NCBI GenBank assembly: GCA_963677745.1
Contig: OY782391.1
Location: forward strand, 608,001-672,000
DNA from: Candidatus Altimarinota bacterium
Lineage (GTDB): Bacteria > Patescibacteriota > Gracilibacteria > UBA1369
Reading direction: 5' to 3'
DNA: 64,000 bases
The first letter of the stretch is position 1. Each line of letters begins with the position of its first letter. A program made the translations under genes and the position numbers. The notes under the pieces are model-generated. The model was given only the letters and a program-made list of their open reading frames with translations. It made no database searches and was not told where the DNA came from. This document shows positions 49,285-64,000 of this stretch, piece by piece.

Positions 49285-52200
49285 CTATTTCTGGTCTTTC
49301 TTTTCCTTATCATCATCCTTGCCCAGAACAAAGATATAAAGACCTCCGCCCACCATTACCAGCACCGTCAACAGACCAATCCAGAAGGGCCAGGGCTGCT
49401 TTGAAACGAACTCAGTAATCCCCTTGGTAACGGCTGTCACCGACTCCTTGCCTACTTCTGCCGCCGGTTTTTCCGGGCCAATCAACCCCAGGTCAAAATT
49501 GATCTTAATGGTTTTACTCATGGCATTGTCACGCTTTCTAACCGTCTGTACATACACGGTATGACGACCGGCTGACAACAGCGGTGCTTTCATATTAAAA
49601 ACGCCGTCAGTCGTATCCACAATCAAGGCAGAGGACACCACCAGACTCTGCCAGGTAACATTAACTTTACTGCCAAACTCGGAAAGAGTACCGGTCAAAA
49701 CCGGCCTGCCATCTTTCGAATCAATTTTCAAAACCACCTTCTTTACCAGCACTTCATCCGTAATCGGTACATTTTCCAGTTTTTCCGGTCTGGCCGCCGC
49801 CACCTCCAGGCTGCTGTCAATAATTATTTTGACGGGTTGTGAAACGTACACATCTCCCTTGTCTATGGCACGAGCCACCAGAAAATATGTTCCGTCCTTG
49901 ATTTCTATAGACGGGATATAAACAAAATTCCCCTTGGCGTCGGTCTGTGTTTCGCCCATCATCAACTCACTGCCAAATTCATTGCGCAACAACATCTGAA
50001 TTTTCACAATATTGTCACCGATACCGGCCGGACCTATTCCCCTGATCAAGGGTGAGGTATCCCCAACCACCTGTCCATACTGGAAATTATTAATAATAAC
50101 CTGAGTGTTGGCCTTCTCGCCGGGATCAAGCGCATCATTGGGATTGGACAAATATCCATACAACTCTTCACTATCGGTAAATCCATCCTGATCAGAATCA
50201 AGCCTGGTCGGATCGGTTGCATAAATATATTCGAGTTTATCGGCAACCCCGTCCCCATCCGTATCCTGCGAACCATCCTTAACCTGAATATTATATTTTA
50301 TTTCCCACTCATCGGATATTCCGTTGGAATTTTTATCTTCAGGTATTGAGGCTTTATCAAGAGGATCACTACCCTCTTTGATTTCATCCGCATCGCTAAA
50401 ATTGTCCTCATCAGAATCGTAAAGATTGGGATCGGTTTTAAATTTTAAAATTTCATCACCATCACTCACCCCATCCTCGTCGGTATCCACTTTATTGGGA
50501 TTGGTTTTATACTTAATTACTTCCTCACCATCCTGCAAAGCGTCCTCATCCGAGTCGGACAAAACCGGGCTGGTAAAATAAGTCAGATTTTCATCAACGT
50601 TTAACAGTCCGTCCGTGTCCGTATCGGCAGAAATACTGACGTCAATTTTCTTGTCTCTGATATAAGCGTTAAAACTGTCCAGATAGGCATTGACTTCAAC
50701 CAGCGTCGGATTGTCATCCGGCTTTAAATCACTGCCTGGTGTACAGTCTATCAACTCCAGTTCACAAACTTTGTTTAAAACTATCGGGTAATACCAGTGA
50801 GCATCATCCTGATCAGGCCGGACATCGGCAAAAGGCGTTTTTTGGGCTTTTATCAATTCCCAAGCCTGTTCAGTCAAAGCATGAGCTACCCTAATTGTTG
50901 AAAAAAGAGGAGTCGGTATATAAGACTGTAAAGCCTGGTTTTGAGACGCGCTCATTTTGGAAAGCAGGCTGGCGGCATAAATCTCCCTGTAAAAAAGCGA
51001 CGAATAGTCAATTTGCCCGGCTTTATAATCCGGACTGGATTTTTCCAGAAGGGCCAGAGCAACCGTCATTATTTTCAGGGCTTCTATCCTCAAAATCGGC
51101 TTCCCAGGGAGATAAGGACTGTTCTCAATTCCATAGAACCCCTGTACCAGACCAATCAAGGCCATATTATTGATAATTTTTTCCTCGGGAAGACCGGCCG
51201 TATCCGGAAACAAATTTAACGGATCCAGACTTAATTTTGGATTACGGCTATACATTCTAAAAATAGTGGTACAGTTTTCCAAATCAGCATAACACTTGTC
51301 CAGTAATGGCTTGCGAAGTTCCAAGATATTCATCTTTTCGGCAATCATTTTTACAATGGCCGATCTGGAAGTCCCTCCCGCCGGAGTCGTCAGTTCTTTC
51401 TCGGTAAAGACTTCAGACAAGGGCTTAACTTCGGACAGAGATACCGGTTTTTCCAGAGGTGCATATAATTCGCTTTCAGTTGGAATCTCGGGAATGGTCG
51501 GTTCCTCAGTCAAAACGTTTTCCGGCGTTTGGGAACTGGAAGGCAACTGATCGGGAGTCTGTGAACCGGAAATCACCACCTCGGGATTCTCAGCCGGCAC
51601 CTCGGAAGTGGACTCGGAAGGCTGATCAGTCGTTGGTTCGTCCGGAGGGATCTCCTCAGAAAGCGTCTGTTCGGGAGGTGGTTCCTCGGTAGGGGGAATT
51701 TCTTCAATGATTGGTTCAACCGGAAGCTCTTCCGGAGGAATAATTTCCTCGGGAGGAATGTCTTCTGCCGGAGGAGGCGTTTCTTCTTCCGGGGGAATGG
51801 TTTCTTCTGGCGGAGTTGTTTCTTCTTCTGGCGGCGTTATTTCTTCTTCCGGGGGGGGGACCTCTTCCTCCGGCGGAGTAACCGGCGGCTCAACATAAAT
51901 AACTGTCCCGCCTCCTCCCCCACCGCTTCTGCCGATATCTATCAGTGCAGGAGTAGAGTCAGCTCCTGCATAATTGGCATAAACTCTCACCCGATACCTC
52001 GACACGCCCAAAGAATCCTCTGGATACAACCATCCTGTTTCCGTCGTAATACTTGCCGCCAAAGTACCATCGAGATCGCCATCAATATCATCCGTCACTC
52101 TCCAATGTACAATTGGATCACAATTGGCCAAGGTTGGATCAATAAGCGGATCGCAATTAAATATCCTGTCAGGGATGGTCGTTCCTGGATAATCATAATG

Positions 52201-52422
52201 AGCGGTTAGAGTAAAATATCTTTTATGTGTTATCCCCTCAATAATCGTTATTCCGGTCGGAGAAACCTCCATCGAAGTCGGTTTCAATCTTAAATCAATC
52301 TCAACACGTGTTTCCTCTGCTTTAACCACCGCCGGCACAATCAACAAAAAACATATCGCCATTAACGATATTCTGGAAATGAACGCGGAATTTTTATTTT
52401 TGTTCATGAACCACACCACCAT
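49285..52422 (-). CDS. Large surface protein: Pro/Glu repeats, SLH-like repeats, D-x-D-x-DG Ca-binding repeats, Ig-like domains, C-terminal TM anchor
   Basis: Signal peptide (..VVKA); PPEEE repeats; FPD...GLVQG...P...R-x-EA and FADV..HWY; about seven D(T/S)D-x-D(G/A/N) units; TM followed by a charged tail. Confidence 0.85.
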   Translation of the reverse strand: MVVWFMNKNKNSAFISRISLMAICFLLIVPAVVKAEETRVEIDLRLKPTSMEVSPTGITIIEGITHKRYFTLTAHYDYPGTTIPDRIFNCDPLIDPTLANCDPIVHWRVTDDIDGDLDGTLAASITTETGWLYPEDSLGVSRYRVRVYANYAGADSTPALIDIGRSGGGGGGTVIYVEPPVTPPEEEVPPPEEEITPPEEETTPPEETIPPEEETPPPAEDIPPEEIIPPEELPVEPIIEEIPPTEEPPPEQTLSEEIPPDEPTTDQPSESTSEVPAENPEVVISGSQTPDQLPSSSQTPENVLTEEPTIPEIPTESELYAPLEKPVSLSEVKPLSEVFTEKELTTPAGGTSRSAIVKMIAEKMNILELRKPLLDKCYADLENCTTIFRMYSRNPKLSLDPLNLFPDTAGLPEEKIINNMALIGLVQGFYGIENSPYLPGKPILRIEALKIMTVALALLEKSSPDYKAGQIDYSSLFYREIYAASLLSKMSASQNQALQSYIPTPLFSTIRVAHALTEQAWELIKAQKTPFADVRPDQDDAHWYYPIVLNKVCELELIDCTPGSDLKPDDNPTLVEVNAYLDSFNAYIRDKKIDVSISADTDTDGLLNVDENLTYFTSPVLSDSDEDALQDGEEVIKYKTNPNKVDTDEDGVSDGDEILKFKTDPNLYDSDEDNFSDADEIKEGSDPLDKASIPEDKNSNGISDEWEIKYNIQVKDGSQDTDGDGVADKLEYIYATDPTRLDSDQDGFTDSEELYGYLSNPNDALDPGEKANTQVIINNFQYGQVVGDTSPLIRGIGPAGIGDNIVKIQMLLRNEFGSELMMGETQTDAKGNFVYIPSIEIKDGTYFLVARAIDKGDVYVSQPVKIIIDSSLEVAAARPEKLENVPITDEVLVKKVVLKIDSKDGRPVLTGTLSEFGSKVNVTWQSLVVSSALIVDTTDGVFNMKAPLLSAGRHTVYVQTVRKRDNAMSKTIKINFDLGLIGPEKPAAEVGKESVTAVTKGITEFVSKQPWPFWIGLLTVLVMVGGGLYIFVLGKDDDKEKKDQK
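51660..51890 (-). repeat. Tandem 18-21 bp coding repeats (PPEEE-x-x)
   Basis: Repeated TTCTTC(T/C)GG units encoding PPEEEV/PPEEEI/PPEEET/PPEETI. Confidence 0.8.
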
Positions 52423-52475: not shown

Positions 52476-54983
52476 CTAAGCAGCATTTTGATAGTCACAG
52501 CCCTGTTTTTCGATTTCTTTGAACCTGTCGCCAAAAATCTGTGGGGGGAAATACATCGAAAACAAAAGAGGCCAAGCCCTCTGGCTTTTATAGACATCAT
52601 GAGACCGGTCCGTATAAGCGGAAAGAGCGAGTAAAATTTCTTTCAAAGTCATACACTTGGTCTCCAGCATCGGATGCGTTACAAAAATTTTGTCCCCCGG
52701 CCCGTGGACGGGATAGGCCGTACGCCCGGTATGGGCAAACTCCTGATTTTCCTTAAACTTTCCGGTGGACTTGGTCCCCTTGGAAACTTTGTTTTTATAA
52801 GTGATATGACGATCCTCCTTATTATCCTCCACCTTTATCAACCCGAACGGATAATTGTCATAAATATAGGTACTGAAAGCGTCCAGGTCCTGTGGGTTTT
52901 TAAATACCCACATCCAGCGGTGCACATCGGACACCTCTTTTCCCCGGTCGGTACTGATTACTCTGGTCAACTCATCCTTAACGTGTATCAAATGGTTATC
53001 ACCGGTATAAACCAGCGCTACAACCTCACGGAATTGCTTGCGGAAAACCCGTTCTTTTTTATCCCAGACCAGCAAGGGAATGCGCATCCTGACCATTTTA
53101 AAATGCTTCTGTTCTTCAGTAGATAAAACTTTGTATTCCTTGCCTTTCCAGGAAAGATTTTGCAAAGTCGGTTCCTCAAAAATCTTTTTGGAAAGATCCT
53201 GATCTAATCCTTCGGCAAACTCCAGCAGATCATTATTGTTTAAAGCCCACTCATAACGAGGCGGTTTGGTTTCCTGACCTTTTTCATCCAGCTGCACCAG
53301 CACCCTGAAATTGACATCCAGATCTTTAATTACCTCTATCTGTAAACGCTGTTTTTCATTTTCCTCCATCCAGTCGCGCTGTACCTCTGCCTCTGCAAAT
53401 TCCTGGGAACTGAGCTGGTTAAGAACGTTTAAAAAATCTCTCAAAAAAGCCCCGCTCATATAGGTTATCTGATCATCGGGCAAATCTTTAAAATCAGGAT
53501 TTTCCTTCCTGAATTGATCCGGATAAATAAACCATTCCATTAACTTCAGCGGGTCGGTACAAAGAAGAATCGGCTTGGGATAGGTACAGGCGGTTTTAGC
53601 TTCTGAGTCCAGACGATAATAAAGCGCGTCCCCGATGGTAATTCTGAATTTGTCAGCCGCCTTGGCCAGATAAAACCTGAAATGATTTTTTACCGCCTCG
53701 TCGGACAGGTCGGGATAGGCCACCGAGGCTTTAAGTCCGAGCAACTCTCGCACTTTTTCCATATAAAGTTTGGGGTCTTTGTAGCTTGTTTCCACCAAAT
53801 CCTTGGCAAATTTTATCAGCAAGACGGTATAATTGGTTTTTCCCTGAGTGCTGGGATCAAGTATTTGCTGAAACAGATCGGTTATCCTCAGATTTTCCTT
53901 TTTAGATAATTGCTTTTTTGAATAAAACTTCATAATGGCCCGGGCAATATGCCTGTCATAAAAAGCTTTAACGTCAAACCCCGGCTCATAAAAAAGTTTT
54001 TCCCCGCCTTCAACACGTGGGGTTTCATTTATAACGCCTGTAACGCTGTTGCCGGTCGCGTCAATCAAGCCTTCTACCCGCAACTCCTCATGATGCTTGG
54101 CCATTTCACGACTCTCTTCGTATAACAAATCATACAAAGACTGCCCCCCGATTCTGGCAATTGAAGCCTTTTGTTTATCCAGATATTCCATCAAATCAAG
54201 AAATTTTCTGTGATTAAAACCCATTCTCTTTTTAGTTTTGTCCGGCGCGATGATCGGACCCATCAAGGATTCCAGGACAAAGTCCTTATTATTTTCCGCA
54301 AATTTCTCCCGATAGGCATCCGCGGCGATTTGCTCAACACTGTCATTAATTTTCTGTACAATTTTCTCCCTTAAATTTGTCATTTTGTGCTGACCGTTGC
54401 CGTTTTGTTCGGAAAACTTTATGGTTAAAAGTTTTTTCAGGTCAAGCATCGGCCTCAGCTTCTTTTGATCAACCAAGAAACGGTAAACCGTGGCCGTTTG
54501 CTGTAATTTATTTTCATCCAGAAAACTCCGGACTTTTGCCAGCACCAGCATTTCCACCTTTCTTAACTGTTCATCGGGAACCGGATTTACCGGTCTGGGA
54601 ATTTGGAGTTCAATTTTGGCCAGATCCCTGTCCAAAGTACCTAACAATTCCTCGGCTAAACCGTCATCACGAAAACGTTCGACAAACTCCGGCAGACTGA
54701 CTTTGTATTCCTGAAACACCTCTTTCACCATAATTTTTATAATATCGCTGAAAGACGTGCTTCCCTGTGAAGCCCCGGCAGCCTGTTTCATTGCCAGATC
54801 AATTCCGTCAAATTCCCTCTCCCTTACTTCCCCGGGCAGACTCCCTTCCGGCTTTCTTCTGCGTGATTCCGCACCAATGCCGTTAACAAGAGCCATATAA
54901 CGATGTTCCACTCCACCATTAACAGAACCGACATCCGGAATTTCATTTTCAACCGATAAATCAGCCGTCTCTAAATTCATCAA
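52476..54983 (-). CDS. Large cytoplasmic protein with a degenerate RelA/SpoT-synthetase-like C-terminal domain
   Basis: 835-aa ORF; ordered motif remnants HVK...D-x2-R...LETKCMT...SHDVYK. The ORF is secure; the domain call is tentative. Confidence 0.55.
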   Translation of the reverse strand: MMNLETADLSVENEIPDVGSVNGGVEHRYMALVNGIGAESRRRKPEGSLPGEVREREFDGIDLAMKQAAGASQGSTSFSDIIKIMVKEVFQEYKVSLPEFVERFRDDGLAEELLGTLDRDLAKIELQIPRPVNPVPDEQLRKVEMLVLAKVRSFLDENKLQQTATVYRFLVDQKKLRPMLDLKKLLTIKFSEQNGNGQHKMTNLREKIVQKINDSVEQIAADAYREKFAENNKDFVLESLMGPIIAPDKTKKRMGFNHRKFLDLMEYLDKQKASIARIGGQSLYDLLYEESREMAKHHEELRVEGLIDATGNSVTGVINETPRVEGGEKLFYEPGFDVKAFYDRHIARAIMKFYSKKQLSKKENLRITDLFQQILDPSTQGKTNYTVLLIKFAKDLVETSYKDPKLYMEKVRELLGLKASVAYPDLSDEAVKNHFRFYLAKAADKFRITIGDALYYRLDSEAKTACTYPKPILLCTDPLKLMEWFIYPDQFRKENPDFKDLPDDQITYMSGAFLRDFLNVLNQLSSQEFAEAEVQRDWMEENEKQRLQIEVIKDLDVNFRVLVQLDEKGQETKPPRYEWALNNNDLLEFAEGLDQDLSKKIFEEPTLQNLSWKGKEYKVLSTEEQKHFKMVRMRIPLLVWDKKERVFRKQFREVVALVYTGDNHLIHVKDELTRVISTDRGKEVSDVHRWMWVFKNPQDLDAFSTYIYDNYPFGLIKVEDNKEDRHITYKNKVSKGTKSTGKFKENQEFAHTGRTAYPVHGPGDKIFVTHPMLETKCMTLKEILLALSAYTDRSHDVYKSQRAWPLLFSMYFPPQIFGDRFKEIEKQGCDYQNAA

Positions 54984-55153: not shown

Positions 55154-56308
55154 ATGCCAAAAATAAAAACCAAATTAGTCGCAACCTTTCTTCTTGCATT
55201 GATTGTCCTTCCGCAAGCGGTTTTTGCCAATTCCCTGATTGTCTCAACTGTAAAAAATCCCGACCCGTACAGTGGAAACTCCAGCTGGTTCCGTTATTAC
55301 GAATATCCGGGAACAACCGTCAAAGATTCCATTATCCTCCGCAACATCGGCAAACAGGCCGAATCAGTCAAGTTATACGCGGCCGACGCAACTTCCAACG
55401 ATGCCGGAAGTTTTTCTCCAAAGATGGAAAACGATGACCAAAAAGGCATAGGCGTATGGACGACTCTTTCTAAAAAAGAAGTAACACTTACCCCCGGTCA
55501 AAGCGAAGAAATCAGCTTTGAAATAAAAATCCCCCAGGAAATCACGCCGGGCCAATACTTTGGAAGTATTATTTATGAAGAAAGCGGAAGCAGCTCCTGT
55601 GGCCCCAATGAAAACGTTTCCGGCTTCTGCACGGGAAACATTCAAATCAAAACCAGAAGCGGCAATCGCGTTTATCTGACCATCCCCGGAGAAGCCAGAC
55701 ACGATATAAAAATGCTGGATTTCAAATGGAAAAAATCAAAAAAGAACAGCGTGTATTTTTCTTTCAGTTTCACCAATAACGGTAACGTCGCCTTCGAACC
55801 TAAAGCAATTATCAGCATTTACAACAGTTTGGGGAAAAAGATTGATACCATCGAGACAAAACTGGGAAAGTCGCTGCCCAACACTTCAATGAATCCTTCG
55901 GTCGAATGGAATTATAAGGAAAACTGGGGAGATTTCACCGCCAAAGCGGAAATATACTATCTGGAAGATAATCAGGGTCGGGTAGACAGCCTGCGTGGCA
56001 CGGTCCTGAGTGAGAAAAAACAAATAAATTTCTATGTGATCCCCTGGACCGGCGTAATCTATGCTCTGGTAATTATTTTAATAATCGGGGGAGCCATTAG
56101 TGCCCACTATCTCTTTTATCTTCGTATTAATAAAACAGCCATCAGATACACGGTAAAAAAAGATGAAAATCTGATTGATCTGGCCGAAACCTACAACACC
56201 AGATGGCAGATCATCGCCCATATCAACAAGCTGAGACCACCGTATGTAATCACTGAAAACCAGGTGATCAAAATCCCCCATAGCTCCGCCCAAAAAAATG
56301 AAAAATAA
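55154..56308 (+). CDS. DUF916/DUF3324-like (WxL-interacting) protein with TM anchor and C-terminal LysM domain
   Basis: Signal peptide; WF-x-Y..PG...D-x-I...N...YA-x-DA...G-x-W...V-x-L-x-PG...IP...PG-x-Y-x-G; N-x-GNV; TM; YTVKK-x-ENL..LA..Y...I...N-x-L...I...Q-x-IKIP. Confidence 0.82.
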   Translation: MPKIKTKLVATFLLALIVLPQAVFANSLIVSTVKNPDPYSGNSSWFRYYEYPGTTVKDSIILRNIGKQAESVKLYAADATSNDAGSFSPKMENDDQKGIGVWTTLSKKEVTLTPGQSEEISFEIKIPQEITPGQYFGSIIYEESGSSSCGPNENVSGFCTGNIQIKTRSGNRVYLTIPGEARHDIKMLDFKWKKSKKNSVYFSFSFTNNGNVAFEPKAIISIYNSLGKKIDTIETKLGKSLPNTSMNPSVEWNYKENWGDFTAKAEIYYLEDNQGRVDSLRGTVLSEKKQINFYVIPWTGVIYALVIILIIGGAISAHYLFYLRINKTAIRYTVKKDENLIDLAETYNTRWQIIAHINKLRPPYVITENQVIKIPHSSAQKNEK

Positions 56309-59300
56309 ACAAGGCTTAAAATTCATCAGTTTTGCAACGCTGCTAACAAGCGTCCTTTCACTGTTACTGGGTAACCAGACCCCGAATATCCAGACCGCAC
56401 AGGCCGCAATCAGTCCCAACGAGGACTCGGTGGCAATTGTCGATCTGATCGATAATCCCGCAGGCGGTATTACTATCAGAGATATCAGCTCCGACATTGA
56501 TAAGGACGGAAACCAATATTACACTTGGGTAACCGACGAACCGGGAAGCTGTCACGGCCTGTATTATCAGGTCTTTAACAAAGCGGCAGTCCCCGTTACG
56601 CAGGCTACGCAAATCGACACCGGCTGTGCGGGTGCATATAATTTTTTCAATCCTGACATCTATACGGCCGCCGACCCGTCGGGAAATTATTCAATAGATC
56701 ATTTTGCGATTGTCTATAACAAATATACGCAAGCCACCGGCTCACATGCCATACGTGTGCTGTCGTATAACAGATCATATGGTCAATATGTAGCAGGTTT
56801 TGGGGTCGACAGCGGACTAATCCTGGACGAAACCGCCCAGCCGCGTATCGCTGGAGATTACCTGGGAGAAAAAGTGGGAATAACTTTTACGGCTCGTGAT
56901 TTTGTAGGCAGTAATCTGCACAATGTATATTTTCAGGGGTATGATCTAGACTTCACACCCATGCACGGCTCCAACCTGCTCGTCAACTCCGTCACTGCGG
57001 GAAACCAGGCAGACCCCGCCATCAGTTTTTCCGGAGAACATTTTATGGTTACTTTCAGCGAAACCGATACTAATCCCACCCCTAACACATATGTAAAAGC
57101 CAGGGCGATCAATTACACGGCAAACAACCTCTCCGCTGAAATCACAGTGGAGGCGGCAACCAATCCCACCATGGCCAATTTCAGCGACGTTGCAGGCATG
57201 CTGGACAATGATTACACAGCCAATCCGCTGATTGAGCATTTTTATGTAACCTACGTATATCATTTTGCCAATGCCGACACTGAAATCCGTCTCAAAAAGA
57301 TCTATTGCCAATACGATTCGGGTAATCCTGGCAGCTATAACTGTAACCTTACCTCCCGGGAAGGAGAACCGATCTATTCACGCGTTAACTCGTCAGGAGT
57401 ACAAAATTCAAAACCAGCGATAACATCTTTTAAAAACACAACCGACATTAAAAGATTTTCTCCCAACGAAAACACCAATATTGACGTCCTGACAGTTGCC
57501 TGGATCAGTAACTATAACGGTACTTTCAACCTGAAGGCACAAAACTACACTGACACGCTCGCCAAAACCGGGGGAGAAATAAGCGTAGCGGACAACATAT
57601 ATGAAAGCTCCGGCATATCCATATCATCCAGCCGTGACGGATTTTACGGAATAACTTTTAAATATAATTCCCCTACTCTGGACAACCACGCCAAACTCTA
57701 TCCGAGCATGTACCTGAAACGCGGCGTCGAAAGGCAGGTCAATGCCCCTGACTCCAGCGCCCAGGAAAACGTCAAAGTGGCAAAGAACAGTGACGGGAAA
57801 TATGTTGTCACCTACCAAAGTTTTAATGGTGCGGATTATGACGTGATTTACGCTCTCTATGATCAATATGGGAACGCTATTAAAAACACCACTCTGGCTA
57901 ATCAGACTACAGGTGACGACCAGACTAACCCACAGGTAGCTTTCTGGAACGAAGACAGCACCTCGGGCGATTATGGAAAATTCATTATTTCCTGGGAAGG
58001 TGCCGGCGCAACCGACGCCGACGGAATTTACTATCGGATTTTCAACGCCGACGGGACTCCCAATTCTGACGAAACTTTGGTCAACCAGAATACCGGCCTG
58101 GCGCAATCGGAAGCTTCCCTGTCCACCGGAAAGTTCGGCCAATTTGCTGTAGTTTACAAAGAATCCTCTTCCATCATCCTCTTCTACAAAAACGGGACAA
58201 ATAACATTTACCAAACCGTCTTCAGCGGCACAGCTCCCTACAACCCCCTTGTTGCATTAAGCAGAATGGCAGACGGCAGCACCGGGTCCTCGGGGACAAG
58301 CAAATTTGTAATCACTTGGGACGAGTCAGCGCTGGCCAGGTCACTGGTGGAGGGATACTTAAACAGCTCCAGCACTGCCCACCTGAATTCCAGCCAGTCT
58401 CAAACCGAACGTACCCTCAAACTGGAAGGTGGATATAATAGTGCCAACGCTACCTTTACACCTGCCCAGGACAATTTTTATTATGTCAGATACGTCTACC
58501 TGCCGGGCGCCCCCCCTACTGCCGGAATAAAAATAAACTTCTTTGGAAACTCAACTCCAATCAATATAAGCACTTCAGCAGATGAAGGTATTAATGACGT
58601 TTCCATTGATCCGGCTACCCAGAATATCTTCACCATCGGACAACGGAACGCCGGTTATTCAGTCGATAACGAACAGGTATTGCTTTTTCCTTCCGATGCT
58701 CCAAGCAACCTGGCCGCCGCAGAACACATTACTGACGAAGACCTTTTGGTTGAAGCAGACGTACTTGAAGGTCATGGACAATATATCTTCATAGAAAACG
58801 CCACCGGAGGTTTCCCTAATGGCACAAGAATCGGAGAATACATACTCGAGTTCATCTACCGGGACACTGTGGTCTATGACGATATCGGAACGGTAACCGG
58901 TAATTTCCTTCAATATTCGGTAAACACGGGAACCAACATGCCGCAGTGGACCAAGTCCGGGCCAGCCTTCGCCATTAATCACTACAATTATTACGGACAA
59001 ACCTTCGGCAGTTACGATGCCGCATACGACACCAGACCTACCGACAGTGACGGAAAGTTTATCGCCACTGCCTATTCGACCGTCAGCTCACCCGATTATC
59101 CGGACGCCAATGGGGTCCTTCAACAAATGATCGACGATCCGTTTTCAGTCGGAACAAAAGAAGACCTTACCCCGGTTACCGAACAACAGGTTAACCCGGG
59201 AGGACGTTATATTATAGTTCCGAACACCATCGATTTCGGTTCTTTATTGAGAAACACCACTGGAACTGTCGACTTCGCAACCCTTACCCCGGACTGTGTA

Positions 59301-59654
59301 TCAATCACGGATTTGGACGGAACCGACTTTGACCTGACCGTTTCACTGACCAGCCTGATAAATACGGGGAATCCCGCCCAAACATTGGCCAACAGCAACT
59401 TTATTATTGAAAACAACAACAGCGTAAATCCCCCGATTGTAAATCTGCTCCCTTTCTCCAGCATCTCCGACGTCACGCTCGACCCGTCCACGGACCCGGG
59501 AGAAAACGCCAATCTGGGAACCACCAGAACCCTCATGCGTAAAAGCAGTTTTGGAACGGGTGCCTGGGAAATCTGTCCAAAAGCCATTTTAAACATCCCG
59601 GCAGAAGTTGAAAGCGGAACCTACAGCGGAACCTTAACTTTCACCCTGATCTGA
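56298..59654 (+). CDS. Large secreted adhesin-like protein: propeller-like repeats plus C-terminal WxL-like domain
   Basis: Signal peptide (..AQA); VN-x-T-x2-Q-x2-P-x-(I/V) repeats; C-terminal VP..IDFG...D...FDLTV...L-x-IP...GTYSGTLTFTLI. Confidence 0.78.
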   Translation: MKNKQGLKFISFATLLTSVLSLLLGNQTPNIQTAQAAISPNEDSVAIVDLIDNPAGGITIRDISSDIDKDGNQYYTWVTDEPGSCHGLYYQVFNKAAVPVTQATQIDTGCAGAYNFFNPDIYTAADPSGNYSIDHFAIVYNKYTQATGSHAIRVLSYNRSYGQYVAGFGVDSGLILDETAQPRIAGDYLGEKVGITFTARDFVGSNLHNVYFQGYDLDFTPMHGSNLLVNSVTAGNQADPAISFSGEHFMVTFSETDTNPTPNTYVKARAINYTANNLSAEITVEAATNPTMANFSDVAGMLDNDYTANPLIEHFYVTYVYHFANADTEIRLKKIYCQYDSGNPGSYNCNLTSREGEPIYSRVNSSGVQNSKPAITSFKNTTDIKRFSPNENTNIDVLTVAWISNYNGTFNLKAQNYTDTLAKTGGEISVADNIYESSGISISSSRDGFYGITFKYNSPTLDNHAKLYPSMYLKRGVERQVNAPDSSAQENVKVAKNSDGKYVVTYQSFNGADYDVIYALYDQYGNAIKNTTLANQTTGDDQTNPQVAFWNEDSTSGDYGKFIISWEGAGATDADGIYYRIFNADGTPNSDETLVNQNTGLAQSEASLSTGKFGQFAVVYKESSSIILFYKNGTNNIYQTVFSGTAPYNPLVALSRMADGSTGSSGTSKFVITWDESALARSLVEGYLNSSSTAHLNSSQSQTERTLKLEGGYNSANATFTPAQDNFYYVRYVYLPGAPPTAGIKINFFGNSTPINISTSADEGINDVSIDPATQNIFTIGQRNAGYSVDNEQVLLFPSDAPSNLAAAEHITDEDLLVEADVLEGHGQYIFIENATGGFPNGTRIGEYILEFIYRDTVVYDDIGTVTGNFLQYSVNTGTNMPQWTKSGPAFAINHYNYYGQTFGSYDAAYDTRPTDSDGKFIATAYSTVSSPDYPDANGVLQQMIDDPFSVGTKEDLTPVTEQQVNPGGRYIIVPNTIDFGSLLRNTTGTVDFATLTPDCVSITDLDGTDFDLTVSLTSLINTGNPAQTLANSNFIIENNNSVNPPIVNLLPFSSISDVTLDPSTDPGENANLGTTRTLMRKSSFGTGAWEICPKAILNIPAEVESGTYSGTLTFTLI

Positions 59655-60262
59655 TGAAAAAAGCATTATACATCTTGGTTTTCTCGTTGATCGGGGCACA
59701 AACTCTGCTGGCTCAGGAAATTCCCTTTACGACTTTTCCCACTCACACCGAGAACCACAACAAGTGGATTATCAGAGACGTGAATCCCGGCTCTTCGTAC
59801 GATGAGTCTATAACCGTAAAAAACCTTTCCGACTATACAATCTCTTTGAAACTGGAAACGATCGAGTTTAGTGAAAACGGAGAAAAAATTAATCTAAGAG
59901 AAGGAGTTCCGCCGGAAGATATCGGCAAATGGATTTCTTTCAACGAACAGAAATTATCTCTGCAACCGCATGAAAAAAAAGAACTTTCCTTGAAAATTTC
60001 TATACCGGAAAAAACTGCGCTGGGAAAATATCAGGCTGCAGTAATGGTGTCTCACTCCTCCGGTGAAGAAGGACAGCTCAACTTGTCCACGCGCATTGGA
60101 AACCGGATTTATTTGAACGTAACCGATTCCAAATTGCTACAGACCAACACAGTTAATTACTGGAATCCTTCCCTGCAAATATTCCTCATTTTAGCATCAC
60201 TTTTAGGCCTGTATTATGGTCTAAAACCGGAAAAAACAGTCAAATCACTCAGTCAACAATGA
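59654..60262 (+). CDS. Single-domain DUF916-like protein with C-terminal TM anchor
   Basis: Signal peptide; W...V-x-PG...E-x-I-x-VKN...IG-x-WI...L-x-P-x-E...IP...G-x-Y...RIG-x-RIYL; homologous by eye to the 55154 protein. Confidence 0.78.
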   Translation: MKKALYILVFSLIGAQTLLAQEIPFTTFPTHTENHNKWIIRDVNPGSSYDESITVKNLSDYTISLKLETIEFSENGEKINLREGVPPEDIGKWISFNEQKLSLQPHEKKELSLKISIPEKTALGKYQAAVMVSHSSGEEGQLNLSTRIGNRIYLNVTDSKLLQTNTVNYWNPSLQIFLILASLLGLYYGLKPEKTVKSLSQQ

Positions 60263-61284
60263 AGATACAAACACTAAAAAAATGGATTAGCCTAGTCAGT
60301 TTTCTGGCCCTGCTTGGCAATGCAACGCCTATCTTTGCCCAATGGGTGGAACTGGAAATATTAGGCGGCGGATACAAACTTCGCGGTCCTTCGGAAATTA
60401 ATTTCGCTACAGTCAGCACCTCCACCAACATCAGCACCAATGAATTGGATTTCCGGGATATCGGCGAAACAACTCCGTCACAAAGTGAAAACAATTTTCT
60501 CCTGGTAATAGACGAGAACGGCGGCAACCCTTTTGACGTAACCGTCACCAGCAACGACCTGAAAAAAGAAGATCCCCTTGTCACGATGACTCTTCCCGAC
60601 AGTACCGGCAACACGCTCAAAGTCGTCAGCTCGAACGGCTTTCTGCCGGGAGACACTTTCATTTTCCCCAATTACACGCCCGACACGGGTATCTATGAAA
60701 TAGCTTCCGTGCCGGATGAAACAACCGTCGTTATTACCTCCACCTTTGCCGGAGGAGCTCCCCCGCTGGACATCACGGTTAGTCGGTATGTCGACTGTGA
60801 GATCACCCCCAAAAAATGCATTGCCTTAGCCGGCTTTTCCATTAAAAACGGCTCCGGCGTGGAAACCGTGTACGGCAATTCCAATGATTTTGTCATCAAC
60901 AGTCAGACTAACGAGTACGTTCCGTTCAAGGCAGCAGCAACCACCATAGCCGGTTCTTCCGGAACCACCTTGAAAGTGGATAATTCAGAGGAATTTTTTA
61001 ACAGTGAAGGTATCTCTTTCCCTTCAGACAGTGGCGTGTTACCTCTCGACAACATTATTTCCACGGTCGACGACAACAACACTATTACACTCCAATATCC
61101 TTTCACAAGTGCCCCCGCAGCAGGGGTTCAGGTCAAATCAACCAACGCGCGTTCCCTCACCCTGGGAAATGGCAATGGTGCGTCTCCCGGACAATGGAAA
61201 ATTTATCCGGTTATTCGGGACGTTATACCGGCCGGCCAGCTCCCTGGCACTTATCAGAGCACTCTAAACTTTACCATCGTTTAA
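60259..61284 (+). CDS. Secreted WxL-like protein with two inserted repeat domains
   Basis: Signal peptide; P..INF, V-x-D-x-NG..FDVTV, G-x-W-x-I-x-P, IP...PGTYQSTLNFTIV; internal repeat S-x-G-x-TLKV. Confidence 0.75.
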   Translation: MKIQTLKKWISLVSFLALLGNATPIFAQWVELEILGGGYKLRGPSEINFATVSTSTNISTNELDFRDIGETTPSQSENNFLLVIDENGGNPFDVTVTSNDLKKEDPLVTMTLPDSTGNTLKVVSSNGFLPGDTFIFPNYTPDTGIYEIASVPDETTVVITSTFAGGAPPLDITVSRYVDCEITPKKCIALAGFSIKNGSGVETVYGNSNDFVINSQTNEYVPFKAAATTIAGSSGTTLKVDNSEEFFNSEGISFPSDSGVLPLDNIISTVDDNNTITLQYPFTSAPAAGVQVKSTNARSLTLGNGNGASPGQWKIYPVIRDVIPAGQLPGTYQSTLNFTIV

Positions 61285-61302: not shown

Positions 61303-63606
61303 ATGAGAACGAAATCAATTAAAATCATTACCGCTATTGTCGCCGCCTGGTCTCTACTGTTACCGGCAACCTCACTGGCACTGACAAACATCAACGATCT
61401 TGACGTGAAATTGGCGGGTAACCGTGAAAATATCGAAATTACCGGCTTACCGGGTTCCTCGTTCGATGAAACTTTACTCATACATAATTATTCTGCGGAA
61501 AGCCAAAAACTTTCCTTTTCCGCAATTGACGTCACGGTTGAGGGACAGAATTTCATTCCGTCCAGTTCCCACCCCGAAGTTGATGACACCGCTTCCTGGA
61601 TTACCGTCCCAACCGGTGAAATCATTGTTTTACCAGGAAAAACAACCGAAATTCCCATTCAAATTACTTATCCCGAACGTGCCGGTGTGGGGAAACATTA
61701 TGCCGGAATCATGACTAGTCGCATTATTGGAAACGATCAAACAAACACCCTTAACATTGAAACCGGCATCAGAGTTTATGCCAATGTTGAAGGCAATCCA
61801 CAGTCGAAATTCAAGTTGATCAACCCCCGGCTAATCAGTTCCACAACTCAGAATCTATATTCAACTACCATCGTCAACAGCGGCAACACGGACCTTGACG
61901 GTAAGGTCACCCTGATCAATCAAGCCAACTCCAACCTTCAGTCGTCCGAAAAAATATTTTTAAAACCCGGAGAAGACCTGAAACTCAATTTGGCACTTCC
62001 TCCTCCCGGCTTTGGAGCGGAAAGACTTGTCTCTGAAATTGAACTGAATAATCAGATAAAAAGCTTTGTTTTACAGGAGGACTTTCATCTTCCCGGAGAA
62101 ATCTGGACGACCATCGCCGTGATCATGTTTTTACTGACTATCTCACTGTTTTTACTAAAAACCTTTTCCCCGGAAAAACGGAAACAGGGATTGGAAAGAA
62201 CAGTTATTTTCTCTTTTCTGCTGCTCTGTTCGTTAACTGTCGGTCTAAATCTGGATAAAATTTCCGCTCAAAACATTCTGGCGGACTCACTGCAGCAGGA
62301 CCGTACAGACAATTATCTGACCACCATTAAATGGGGGGATTTGCAGAGAGACCCTTCCACGGACGATTCTTTTACCAGCTGGAATGGATATTTCACTTTA
62401 AACAATGGTCAGATGTATCTTGTTGAAAAACTTCACAATGAAGCTGACGACCAAATCAATCTTGGATCGGAAAACAAAGTCTTGTTCTTTGAAAACGTCT
62501 CCGGCCCGGACAATGACGGCGTAATATTACTTATAAAAACGCTTCCCGGCGGGCCAGATCCTACGCTTACTATGCACAATCTCTCCACCGGCGAGGAGAT
62601 CCCGGTGCGTCTGGAAAAAACGCTGAAACAAGGACGTTTTATCAAATACAAACAGCAGGAAATCAGCATCAATTCGGAACCCGCGCCCGCCTTAATTAAT
62701 GTCAATGACGGAACTACAACCGGTCAAATTCCTCTGGACGACTTCGGTAAAGTTCTGCCGGTTCCTGAAACCCCTTCCGTAATTAGTCCTGAAATCGTTC
62801 CCGAAATTGTCGTCGAGCTGGAAAGCACGGAGGAGGTTAACGGGGTGATTACCGACGAAAATGCCACGCCCGACACTTCACTTACTGAAGCCGTTGTCGT
62901 CGAAATGCCAACCGGGCCGGTACAAATAGAAGAAACTGTCGTTGAAACTGCCCCGACAGTCAAAGACCTGTCCGGAGAAATTGCCATGTTGAAAAACCTG
63001 ATTCAGGATATCCCCGCTTCACCGGACGTCATCAGCGAATACATTCTTAACTCCGAATACGTGGAAGCGATAACCTCGGAGAATCTGACTACAATAGTCA
63101 GCGGCAACTCCGCTCTGATCAGGGCCCTCAAAGACACCCCTTTGACTATCCAGGAGCTCACTTCTACTCCAGACCTCAACTATGCTTTTATCCCTAATGA
63201 GAAAATCAAACTCGCCCCGCAAAGCTTTTCCTTCACCGAACAAAAAACTGCCGCTCAGGAATTAAACGAAATCGTTTTTGTTCAAAGAAAAGAAATCCCC
63301 TGGTCAGTCTATATGTCTATCGGTAATCTAATTTCATTATCCGGCTCAGCGGCGATTCCGTCCGACAACGTCACCATCGACCCGGGCGCTGTAAATCTGG
63401 TTACCCAAAACGGAACTGCCGCGCTGATAGAAGCTGGCATACCGAGGGCCGTCAGCGGACTAAGCGACCAATTATTACTGGTATCGATTATTCCTCAGGG
63501 ACCGGGTGAAACAACCTTTTCGATCACCCCTAAACTGAGCATTACAGTACCGCCCAGGACTCCTCCAGGCATCTACAGAGCAATGATCACCATTAGAATT
63601 ATTTAA
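61303..63606 (+). CDS. Fusion of DUF916/DUF3324-like domains, two TM helices, an acidic linker and a C-terminal WxL-like domain
   Basis: Signal peptide; PG...L-x-HN...ASWI...V-x-PG...P...G-x-H-x-AGI, N-x-GN; two TM; C-terminal PWSV...IP..NV...P-x-L-x-ITVP..TPPGIYRAMITIRII. Confidence 0.75.
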   Translation: MRTKSIKIITAIVAAWSLLLPATSLALTNINDLDVKLAGNRENIEITGLPGSSFDETLLIHNYSAESQKLSFSAIDVTVEGQNFIPSSSHPEVDDTASWITVPTGEIIVLPGKTTEIPIQITYPERAGVGKHYAGIMTSRIIGNDQTNTLNIETGIRVYANVEGNPQSKFKLINPRLISSTTQNLYSTTIVNSGNTDLDGKVTLINQANSNLQSSEKIFLKPGEDLKLNLALPPPGFGAERLVSEIELNNQIKSFVLQEDFHLPGEIWTTIAVIMFLLTISLFLLKTFSPEKRKQGLERTVIFSFLLLCSLTVGLNLDKISAQNILADSLQQDRTDNYLTTIKWGDLQRDPSTDDSFTSWNGYFTLNNGQMYLVEKLHNEADDQINLGSENKVLFFENVSGPDNDGVILLIKTLPGGPDPTLTMHNLSTGEEIPVRLEKTLKQGRFIKYKQQEISINSEPAPALINVNDGTTTGQIPLDDFGKVLPVPETPSVISPEIVPEIVVELESTEEVNGVITDENATPDTSLTEAVVVEMPTGPVQIEETVVETAPTVKDLSGEIAMLKNLIQDIPASPDVISEYILNSEYVEAITSENLTTIVSGNSALIRALKDTPLTIQELTSTPDLNYAFIPNEKIKLAPQSFSFTEQKTAAQELNEIVFVQRKEIPWSVYMSIGNLISLSGSAAIPSDNVTIDPGAVNLVTQNGTAALIEAGIPRAVSGLSDQLLLVSIIPQGPGETTFSITPKLSITVPPRTPPGIYRAMITIRII

Positions 63607-64000
63607 TCTCAACCGGTGATTCGACAGCTTCCCCAACAGGTTCTGCGCCAGTTGTCACAACATTAATTTCGGACTTGACCGTTTCGGGAATCACCTCTGT
63701 CGGCTCTGTAATCTTCTTTTTCTCCTCTATTACCGGGGTCGACGGGCTGGTTAATTGCTCATAATATCCCAGACAATTTCGTTTAATTTCATCACTGATG
63801 CCTTTCTGACAAACCTCGCGGTCTTTTGCCTCAACCGCCTGATTGGCCAAAATATGGGAATTACAGCTCTTAAAATAAACCTCATTTTTTATTTCTTCAC
63901 ATTTTTTTATGTCCTTGGTTAAAACAATGGCATTCAACTGATCCTGTAGCTTTAACAAATTAACCGTTTCGGCCTCCTGGACTTTGATCTGATCAAGCTC
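63599..64000 (-). CDS. Hypothetical protein with Cys-pair repeats (5'-partial)
   Basis: Frame stays open to the window end; KDIKKC-x10-C and KDREVC-x11-C repeats. Confidence 0.7.
   Translation of the reverse strand, partial: ELDQIKVQEAETVNLLKLQDQLNAIVLTKDIKKCEEIKNEVYFKSCNSHILANQAVEAKDREVCQKGISDEIKRNCLGYYEQLTSPSTPVIEEKKKITEPTEVIPETVKSEINVVTTGAEPVGEAVESPVEIK

Follow-up and report, generated by a model that had tools for sequence, protein, structure and literature searches.

A conserved fusion of a predicted WxLIP-type membrane chaperone with a WxL-like domain in a Peregrinibacteria-type bacterium of the candidate phyla radiation (CPR)

The closest described relatives of the system considered here are the Elr pili of enterococci, where chaperones of the DUF916/DUF3324 type, anchored in the membrane, use donor-strand complementation to prime the WxL subunits, polymerisation proceeds by strand exchange, and fibre growth is proposed to be ended, and the fibre anchored, by a small LPxTG protein (excerpts of bioRxiv 10.64898/2026.10.17.759780). 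The same preprint defines an Elr-type operon by a chaperone with PGBD and HBD above threshold and a WxL protein within 10 kb, the LPxTG terminator being optional, and its survey, of one RefSeq reference proteome per genus at Pfam gathering thresholds, placed the system in Bacillota alone, the chaperones having in addition a small satellite group in Actinomycetota. Here we analyse a locus which that survey would miss because of its Pfam criteria, lying in a 64,000-nucleotide window (the whole stretch of DNA analysed; positions 608,001 to 672,000 of contig OY782391.1, assembly GCA_963677745.1, Candidatus Altimarinota bacterium). A single ATG-started open reading frame (ORF) on its forward strand encodes a 767-residue protein that very probably unites a WxLIP-type chaperone and a WxL-like acceptor subunit in one chain, both outside the cell. 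The host, with a one-contig genome of 1.34 Mb, is not a Firmicute but a CPR bacterium of Peregrinibacteria type.

The fusion and its conservation

The 767-residue chain opens with a signal peptide and two immunoglobulin-like (Ig-like) domains, continues through a first transmembrane helix (TM1), a Lys/Arg-rich loop and a second helix (TM2), and closes with two beta domains separated by a linker that is acidic and predicted to be disordered (Table 1). A Kyte-Doolittle scan finds three hydrophobic segments, a signal-peptide-like one at residues 8-26, TM1 at 267-285 and TM2 at ~297-320, i.e., two helices after the signal peptide rather than a single one. Two hydrophobic cores are called by a strict rule in 46 of 51 aligned homologues, making the hairpin a feature of the family (among the remaining five, a second hydrophobic stretch is visible in four, and in one the aligned slice missed TM1), and the loop between them, 14-15 residues long in this protein, is net positive (+2 to +11) in 46/46 homologues with both cores called. 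Both ends of the chain most likely lie outside the cell, judging by the positive-inside rule together with the signal peptide and the pair of hydrophobic helices. The middle domain carries W-G, W-x-G and D-N-D-G landmarks formed by columns that are invariant in a 17-sequence family alignment (G345, W360, G362, D403, N404, D405 and G406), and residues 325-482 have neither a Pfam match nor a usable match in a protein-language-model atlas. The spacer that follows it (484-558, 75 residues) is predicted to be disordered, with a predicted local distance difference test score (pLDDT) <50, and contains 16 Asp/Glu, 1 Lys/Arg, 15 Val, 10 Thr and 9 Pro; the linker is net negative in 49 of the 51 homologues, over a length range of 9-102 residues. 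A full-length AlphaFold2 model built on the 17-sequence alignment has a mean pLDDT of 73.5 and a predicted template modelling score (pTM) of 0.37, and displays two beta-sandwich domains at 33-262. Much of this had been read off by a first-pass annotation of the DNA made from its letters alone: the signal peptide, the basic loop, the W/G/DG landmarks and the acidic spacer all correspond, the TM1 string is exactly 267-285, and the proposed topology, two TM helices around a positive loop with both ends outside, is likewise what we predict.

The junction between the two halves looks as if the tail of a chaperone had been joined to a signal peptide, and pairs of neighbouring genes at the locus overlap by 1-11 nt, so that two adjacent genes could in principle have been read as one through an assembly or sequencing error. 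This explanation is practically refuted by the conservation of the fused frame. A word-indexed search returned 16 full-length homologues from independent assemblies (705-793 residues, 33-46% identity, 97-100% query coverage), all of them fused, and a HMMER scan of 1.84 billion cluster representatives gave 48 matches at E<1e-30, mostly of 700-800 residues. Within the same GTDB family, 24 of 36 genomes match at E<=1e-30, and 22 of these 24 hold both halves in one stop-free frame, one of the others having a single TAG and the last carrying the halves on two contigs. Contigs of three public runs, belonging to two studies, moreover cover the whole ORF without a single difference or gap; part of these runs may have supplied this DNA and hence give no independent support. 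The fusion of chaperone and subunit is therefore real and old, and the spanning contigs show no stop or frameshift such as, at read level, would in the first-pass annotation have betrayed two separate genes.

Among 151 sampled genomes of the class, this one alone has a full-profile match, and in the other 25 class genomes with matches at E<=1e-10 the listed matches cover only the N-terminal chaperone part. Shorter database matches were considered as possible unfused halves and set aside: P0037, P0042, P0052, P0060 and P0062 sit on contigs of 2.1-3.2 kb and look like fragments, and the clusters of P0051 and P0062 also contain members of 712 and 655 residues. P0056 is a 489-residue form that begins at TM1, on a 29.8-kb contig.

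The two halves, their predicted pairing and the fate of the chain

By predicted fold and by profile, rather than by Pfam thresholds, the N-terminal half is a diverged WxLIP-type (DUF916/DUF3324, PapD-like) chaperone, which bears out the DUF916/DUF3324-like region proposed at first pass. Its best Foldseek matches are the Enterococcus faecium WxLIP structures 9i1y and 9i25_C (E ~5e-11; 4.6e-11), followed by EcpB, FimC, CfaA and PapD. VIA-align superposes 9i1y_A on model residues 31-264 with Z 13.0 (225 residues aligned, root-mean-square deviation 8.6), and then, at Z 9.4-10.2, FimC (10.2), EcpB (10.0), SafB (9.9), CfaA, YadV, CupB2 and CsuC, the broad VIA search with the full model having effectively covered residues 28-262 only. 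On the sequence side, a profile of the 51-sequence family matches residues 22-251 of the EfmWxLIP1 chain, i.e., both of its domains, at E 5e-6; Pfam PF06030 (WxLIP_PGBD) is matched by 48 of the 51 family members at E<=1 (best 2.2e-11), and by 16 of 17 in a smaller set; and BLASTP links the 767-residue protein to PF06030-positive WxLIP-type neighbours at E 1e-14 and 7e-13. PF11797 (WxLIP_HBD) is not among the 25 families listed for the 51 members. The N-terminal half holds a tandem Ig-like pair with a WxLIP/PapD-like fold, according to structure and profile match, and the signal peptide together with a TM helix directly after the second domain constitutes the WxLIP layout, which hydropathy indicates is kept in homologues.

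The C-terminal domain can be called WxL-like, the evidence being weak and membership of the family unproven. In the protein-language-model atlas, 17 of its 30 matches are WxL clusters (best score 0.93, with 174 shared features, on a scale uncalibrated for parts of proteins). Pfam WxL (PF13731) is matched by two small secreted proteins from two genomes of the same order, at 25.8 bits (cut-off 25) and 23.2 bits (L014:1498-2109 (-), 203 residues; L015:1495-2079 (-), 194 residues), which suggests that recognisable WxL pilins exist in this CPR order. The mature N-termini of these two small proteins carry S-x-G-x-L-x-I, like the published donor-strand consensus. A Pfam-WxL-positive small protein gave only two relatives in a word-index search, so that no large WxL alignment could be built; compared by hhalign with three Pfam-WxL-positive or near-positive proteins, the C-terminal domain aligns over 126 columns (probability 50.6%, E 1.6e-4), with the invariant W667 (W-S-V) at the first W-x-L position and the last strands also aligned, and against the C-terminus of the 1118-residue product of the same operon the probability is 32.5%.

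The domain occupies the C-terminal position in a secreted protein, beside a WxLIP gene, and lacks the two Trp-x-Leu motifs of WxL domains, W667 standing in W-S-V and the last motif being I-T-I without Trp. The family tail follows the consensus L-T-I-T-x-L or I-[ST]-I-[KR]-x-[IL] (in fuller form P-G-x-Y-x-G/A-x-L/I-T/S-I-x-x-L/I), and the tail of divergent members, P-G-x-Y-x-G-x-L-T-I-T-x-L, parallels G-T-Y-x-G-T-L-T-F-T-L-I in the 1118-residue protein and T-Y-T-T-T-L-T-F-S-I-V in Pfam-positive proteins. The motif is unspecific: local hidden Markov models (HMMs) of the middle and C-terminal domains also match chaperone Ig domains by this short tail, and among the other 11 proteins of the locus they find nothing significant. 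Modelled alone (pLDDT 75.2, pTM 0.72), the domain resembles strand-exchange subunits at Z 5-6.4, namely the pilin domains of CfaE, CssB, CsuA/B, FimG and PapG, as well as archaeal cannula and bundling-pilus subunits. The WxL-like C-terminus of the first-pass annotation thus finds weak support in atlas neighbours, hhalign and a degenerate motif, and none in a Pfam WxL match or a Trp in the last motif.

Were the protein no fibre component, it would be a membrane protein showing two unrelated Ig-like ectodomains, as an adhesin or a wall-binding protein, and any modelled pairing between them would be generic docking of beta edges. Such a reading agrees with the lack of a significant Pfam match for the C-terminal domain, with its best fold matches, which are GH123 N-terminal beta-sandwiches (Z 6.9-7.0), with the presence of the tail motif P-G-x-Y-x-x-x-I-x-I within chaperone Ig domains, and with an earlier model of WxL clusters as a static peptidoglycan-binding platform (excerpts of PMC10599100). 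We nevertheless regard it as improbable, given the chain of profile matches to Pfam-WxL-positive proteins, the conserved synteny with chaperone-subunit pairs, and the outcome of modelling the two halves together. For the latter, residues 30-264 and 555-767 were modelled as two chains, each with its family alignment, alongside three controls with an unrelated partner or an unrelated chain 1. The median score was 0.68, against 0.00 for the best of the three controls, the mark for this score (calibrated at 116/157 solved complexes and 2/215 mismatched pairs) being only roughly valid with a custom alignment. The runs share at least 81% of contacts, the pLDDT of the partner is at least 75, and the lowest-error contacts (151:763, 152:764, 153:765, 154:766 and 155:767) keep a constant offset, so that in the model strand 148-157 of the chaperone hairpin runs parallel to the last strand, 759-767. 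In the published arrangement of ElrE on the WxL subunit ElrD, the chaperone strand likewise runs parallel to the strand at the subunit's C-terminus, and the N-terminal strand of a neighbouring subunit is antiparallel (bioRxiv 10.64898/2026.10.17.759780). The contact predicted here, between a specific hairpin strand and the last strand, has the geometry published for chaperone-to-WxL donor-strand complementation, and the earlier suggestion that the fusion supports a pairing of the two domain types finds support at the level of the model.

The reading we favour, with roughly even confidence as a whole, is that the 767-residue product is a natural, conserved fusion of a membrane-anchored WxLIP-type chaperone with a WxL-like fibre subunit, and that the chain is not cleaved. 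The hairpin would join the C-terminal anchor of the chaperone (TM1) to the former signal peptide of the subunit (TM2), an origin that we infer because TM2 has a shorter core than TM1 (median 17.5 against 21 residues in the homologue set) and an I-S-A/Q ending like the signal peptides of the neighbours; with TM1 as anchor and TM2 as former signal peptide, both halves would face outward. Because the long acidic linker lets the C-terminal domain reach back, complementation within one chain appears possible, the hairpin strand of the chaperone completing the C-terminal domain by the parallel pairing described above, as modelled donor-strand complementation. An uncleaved chain would be a cis-chaperoned, membrane-tethered member of the fibre. 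We lean modestly towards the chain remaining uncleaved. That the protein is specifically the base anchor or the terminator of the fibre is plausible and less probable again. Less likely than not is a scheme in which anchoring is achieved by covalent chaperone-subunit fusion instead of by sortase or wall, the acceptor groove being capped in cis by its own chaperone, which would end growth, and the hairpin tying the fibre base to the membrane.

Several observations weigh against this favoured reading. The 767-residue protein itself has no PF06030 match at E<=1 and PF11797 matches nothing in the genome at E<=1, and similarly residues 555-767 have no Pfam WxL match at E<=10 and the genome none at E<=1. 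The fold matches of the C-terminal domain are middling, the best of them being the GH123 sandwiches, and the listed Foldseek and VIA matches of the C-terminal model do not include the WxL chain of 9i25, an absence that does not exclude the fold. The score of the modelled complex may stem from its likeness to 9i25, a solved WxLIP-WxL complex, and so not be independent evidence. No donor strand is demonstrated in the C-terminal half, so that the role of base or terminator is unproven; in the conserved Y-L-T-T-I-K-W-G strand after TM2, Ile and Trp are spaced like the donor positions of the published [V/I]-x-[F] pattern, but the monomer model puts this strand inside the middle domain. Finally, the I-S-A/Q after TM2 and the x-F-A/Q or G-S-A/Q sites of divergent homologues allow cleavage.

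Cleavage is the core of the main alternative, a polyprotein, which we judge less likely than the uncleaved chain. TM2 would then function as a signal peptide inside the chain, and its cleavage by signal peptidase I at the outer face would yield, in 1:1 ratio and at the same spot, a chaperone anchored by two TM helices and a free WxL-like subunit made up of middle domain, linker and acceptor. The subunit would act as a tip-type or large WxL protein, not as an anchor; its payload-linker-C-terminal WxL layout resembles that of the tip adhesins in bioRxiv 10.64898/2026.10.17.759780. TM2 has a charged n-region besides its shorter core, and its I-S-A/Q, at 320-323, shares the x-x-A/Q ending with the N-terminal signal peptides of the 341-, 202-, 212- and 230-residue neighbours. 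Divergent homologues have T-F-A/Q, I-F-A/Q or G-S-A/Q directly after TM2, and a conserved aliphatic-x-[A/S/T]-[D/Q/N] motif falls in a low-confidence juxtamembrane stretch. A precedent is the cytochrome b-c1 precursor of Bradyrhizobium, which is cut at an internal signal peptide. Set against these points, the A-x-A-like site is not kept at one column among close homologues, the would-be -1 position of the conserved motif is often Thr, a residue unusual there for signal peptidase I, and the c-region would be long (~12 residues).

The operon, its neighbourhood and related loci

The 767-residue ORF is the last of five genes, the four upstream ones abutting or overlapping at their stops and starts. 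Their order is the same in six related loci: all five genes are found in four of these, the contig ends within gene 2 in one, and in one the ORF picker kept an overlapping frame, leaving the 202-residue gene unlisted. From its sequence the operon reads as three chaperone-subunit pairs, 384/1118, 202/341 and a third that is fused. By hhalign, the C-terminal 220 residues of the 1118-residue protein match Pfam-WxL-positive proteins over 149 columns (probability 80.9%, E 1.2e-5), and they are also matched by the N-terminus of the 341-residue protein (probability 77.5%), whose conserved amphipathic N-terminal strand is suggestive of donor-strand exchange; the C-terminal domain of the 767-residue protein aligns with the 341-residue family in the last 28 columns only (probability 46%). 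Direct BLASTP of the 767-residue protein against its 341- and 1118-residue neighbours is not significant, and none of the five proteins of the operon has a relevant NCBIfam match.

Across a 45-kb region none of the 25 large ORFs carries a C-terminal LPxTG signal, and the sole sortase gene lies ~465 kb away, the only membrane-tethered components at the locus being the chaperones and the 767-residue fusion. PF06030 exceeds its cut-off in four genes of the genome, PF11797 and PF13731 have no match in it, and the locus lacks the gathering-threshold matches to all three Pfam models that the published Elr-type definition entails.

Table 1. Features of the 767-residue fusion gene and of the four genes upstream, in window positions (aa, amino acids of the protein concerned)
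Feature	Position	Strand	Basis
Gene 1, 384-aa WxLIP-type chaperone with TM and C-terminal LysM	55154..56308	+	Pfam WxLIP_PGBD 7.1e-10, LysM 1.2e-8
Gene 2, 1118-aa large protein with WxL-like C-terminal domain	56298..59654	+	hhalign
Gene 3, 202-aa short WxLIP-type chaperone, one Ig domain and TM	59654..60262	+	Pfam WxLIP_PGBD 1e-4; family N-terminal HMM 2.7e-24
Gene 4, 341-aa secreted protein, candidate pilin with conserved amphipathic N-terminal strand and WxL-like C-terminal motif	60259..61284	+	Alignment; hhalign
Whole ORF, 767-aa fused chaperone-subunit protein	61303..63606	+	ORF list; homologues; spanning contigs
N-terminal signal peptide, aa 1-26, hydrophobic core 8-26 then S-L-A	61303..61380	+	Hydropathy; model helix 2-19; cleavage site placed by eye
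Ig-like domain 1, DUF916/WxLIP_PGBD-like, aa 30-165	61390..61797	+	BLASTP to WxLIP-type neighbours; family PF06030 matches; fold like 9i1y and PapD-like domains
Predicted donor strand of chaperone hairpin, aa 148-157	61744..61773	+	Lowest-error contacts in two-chain model
Ig-like domain 2, DUF3324-equivalent, aa 168-262	61804..62088	+	9i1y_A alignment; family profile against EfmWxLIP1; no Pfam PF11797 match
TM1, aa 266-285, counterpart of the membrane anchor at the C-terminus of stand-alone WxLIP chaperones	62098..62157	+	Hydropathy 2.46; model helix 266-285; family conservation
Predicted cytoplasmic Lys/Arg-rich loop, aa 286-299	62158..62199	+	5 K/R against 2 D/E
TM2, aa 300-318, signal-peptide-like; I-S-A then Q at 320-323	62200..62256	+	Hydropathy; signal-peptide origin putative
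Middle beta domain, aa 337-480, first strand conserved Y-L-T-T-I-K-W-G	62311..62742	+	12 strands, pLDDT ~75-87; invariant columns
Acidic linker, predicted disordered, aa 484-558	62752..62976	+	pLDDT <50; charge
C-terminal domain, aa 555-767, WxL-like, putative pilin-like acceptor	62965..63603	+	Language-model atlas, hhalign, fold matches
Last strand, aa 759-767, predicted partner of chaperone strand	63577..63603	+	Two-chain model

The 384-residue chaperone has a signal peptide, one long hydrophobic stretch (~293-323), a Lys/Arg-rich tail and the LysM at 332-375; a single TM helix would put the peptidoglycan-binding LysM in the cytoplasm, which is odd, and the C-terminal tail is kept in the orthologues of five related loci. 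A second, larger cluster of like composition lies just past the end of the window (G000:C1:672312-692140, window-equivalent 64312-84140), with a 4593-residue protein of WxL-like ending followed by alternating WxLIP-type (400, 391 and 230 residues) and small secreted proteins, the latter (212 and 241 residues) ending in T-F-T-L-type motifs; three genes of this cluster match PF06030 over the cut-off. In other genomes of the class (e.g., G035, G125, G047 and G117), chaperone-profile and Pfam WxL matches are broken by 3-12 in-frame TGA codons, a pattern that fits lineages reading TGA as a residue, and these genes may be intact under another code.

Three minus-strand ORFs flank the operon. That at 52476-54983 (835 residues) is divergent from the operon and has no Pfam match, and five of the six related loci have a minus-strand ORF of 824-852 residues at the equivalent position, matched by position and size alone. 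Beyond it, the 1045-residue protein encoded at 49285-52422 is probably a calcium-binding surface protein, judging from its matches to the bacterial TSP3 repeat (E 3.4e-13) and to the Ca-binding domain of binary-toxin B/PA-type proteins (E 2.6e-6). On the other side, a 173-residue ORF (63599-64000, continuing to genome position 672120) overlaps the stop of the 767-residue gene by 8 nt on the opposite strand and has a lipoprotein-like N-terminus with a hydrophobic stretch ending S-G-C; minus-strand ORFs of 185-228 residues follow the 767-residue homologue in four related loci, again matched by position and size alone.

Significance and comparison with known systems

A natural fusion provides independent, evolutionary (Rosetta-stone) support for the pairing of chaperone and WxL subunit, biochemically shown so far only in enterococci, and suggests a greater age and a broader distribution for this principle of assembly than appear from the published survey. 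It would extend the fibre machinery beyond the Gram-positive bacteria from which it is described, as a diverged version in CPR bacteria of ultra-small size, which are thought to attach to host cells through their surface appendages. Provided that the chain is intact, it would represent a new way to end and anchor a strand-exchange fibre without an outer membrane or a sortase substrate, and a ready-made self-complemented subunit for structural work. In the collection of full-text papers searched, none connects WxL, DUF916 or WxLIP with Patescibacteria, CPR or Peregrinibacteria, and 'WxL' and 'Patescibacteria' occur together only in an unrelated mouse microbiota study.

Among individual proteins, the best structural and sequence-profile match of the N-terminal half is E. 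faecium WxLIP1 (PDB 9i1y; 9i25 when bound to a long WxL protein), with an identity of only ~16%, and the proteins of 9i25 are separate chains. At the level of fold alone, the Gram-negative chaperone-usher pili provide a second likeness, both in the chaperone (FimC, EcpB, SafB) and in the pilin-like C-terminal domain. In those pili PapH is an example of a terminator subunit, and the idea that a blocked subunit groove stops growth is common to them, to self-complemented pilins (e.g., PDB 6erj) and to the scheme considered here. In contrast, the present system has neither usher nor periplasm, and its cis element would be a whole fused chaperone, not a grafted strand.

In the WxL/csc clusters of Lactobacillales, secreted WxLIP and WxL-type genes cluster as they do here, and WxLIP proteins have the same signal peptide, two Ig domains and C-terminal TM (excerpts of PMC10599100). 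That survey distinguishes PGBD alone, HBD alone, full-length WxLIP and WxL, whereas our second Ig domain goes unrecognised by PF11797, and the excerpts describe no WxLIP-WxL fusion; neither they nor a term search of bioRxiv 10.64898/2026.10.17.759780 yielded a chaperone-WxL fusion or a two-TM form. The first-pass annotation had taken Firmicutes csc loci as its frame of reference, which was off target for a CPR host, while its remark that such an architecture is not known from those loci agrees with the excerpts.

The comparison is closest with Enterococcus faecalis ElrE and its subunits ElrD, ElrC and ElrA. Both systems have a two-domain PapD-like membrane chaperone whose hairpin strand lies parallel to the strand at the C-terminus of an incomplete Ig-like domain (here in a model), and in both the operon combines chaperones with small subunits and with large ones that carry an acceptor domain at the C-terminus (bioRxiv 10.64898/2026.10.17.759780). 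However, while the Elr chaperone and subunits are separate polypeptides, here one chaperone and its subunit form a single chain through a TM hairpin, in an operon that has three chaperones, one per subunit, and no LPxTG terminator, with subunit domains that fall below Pfam WxL thresholds and have no Trp in the last motif; and while the Elr survey found its system in Bacillota only, this one resides in a Peregrinibacteria-type CPR bacterium.

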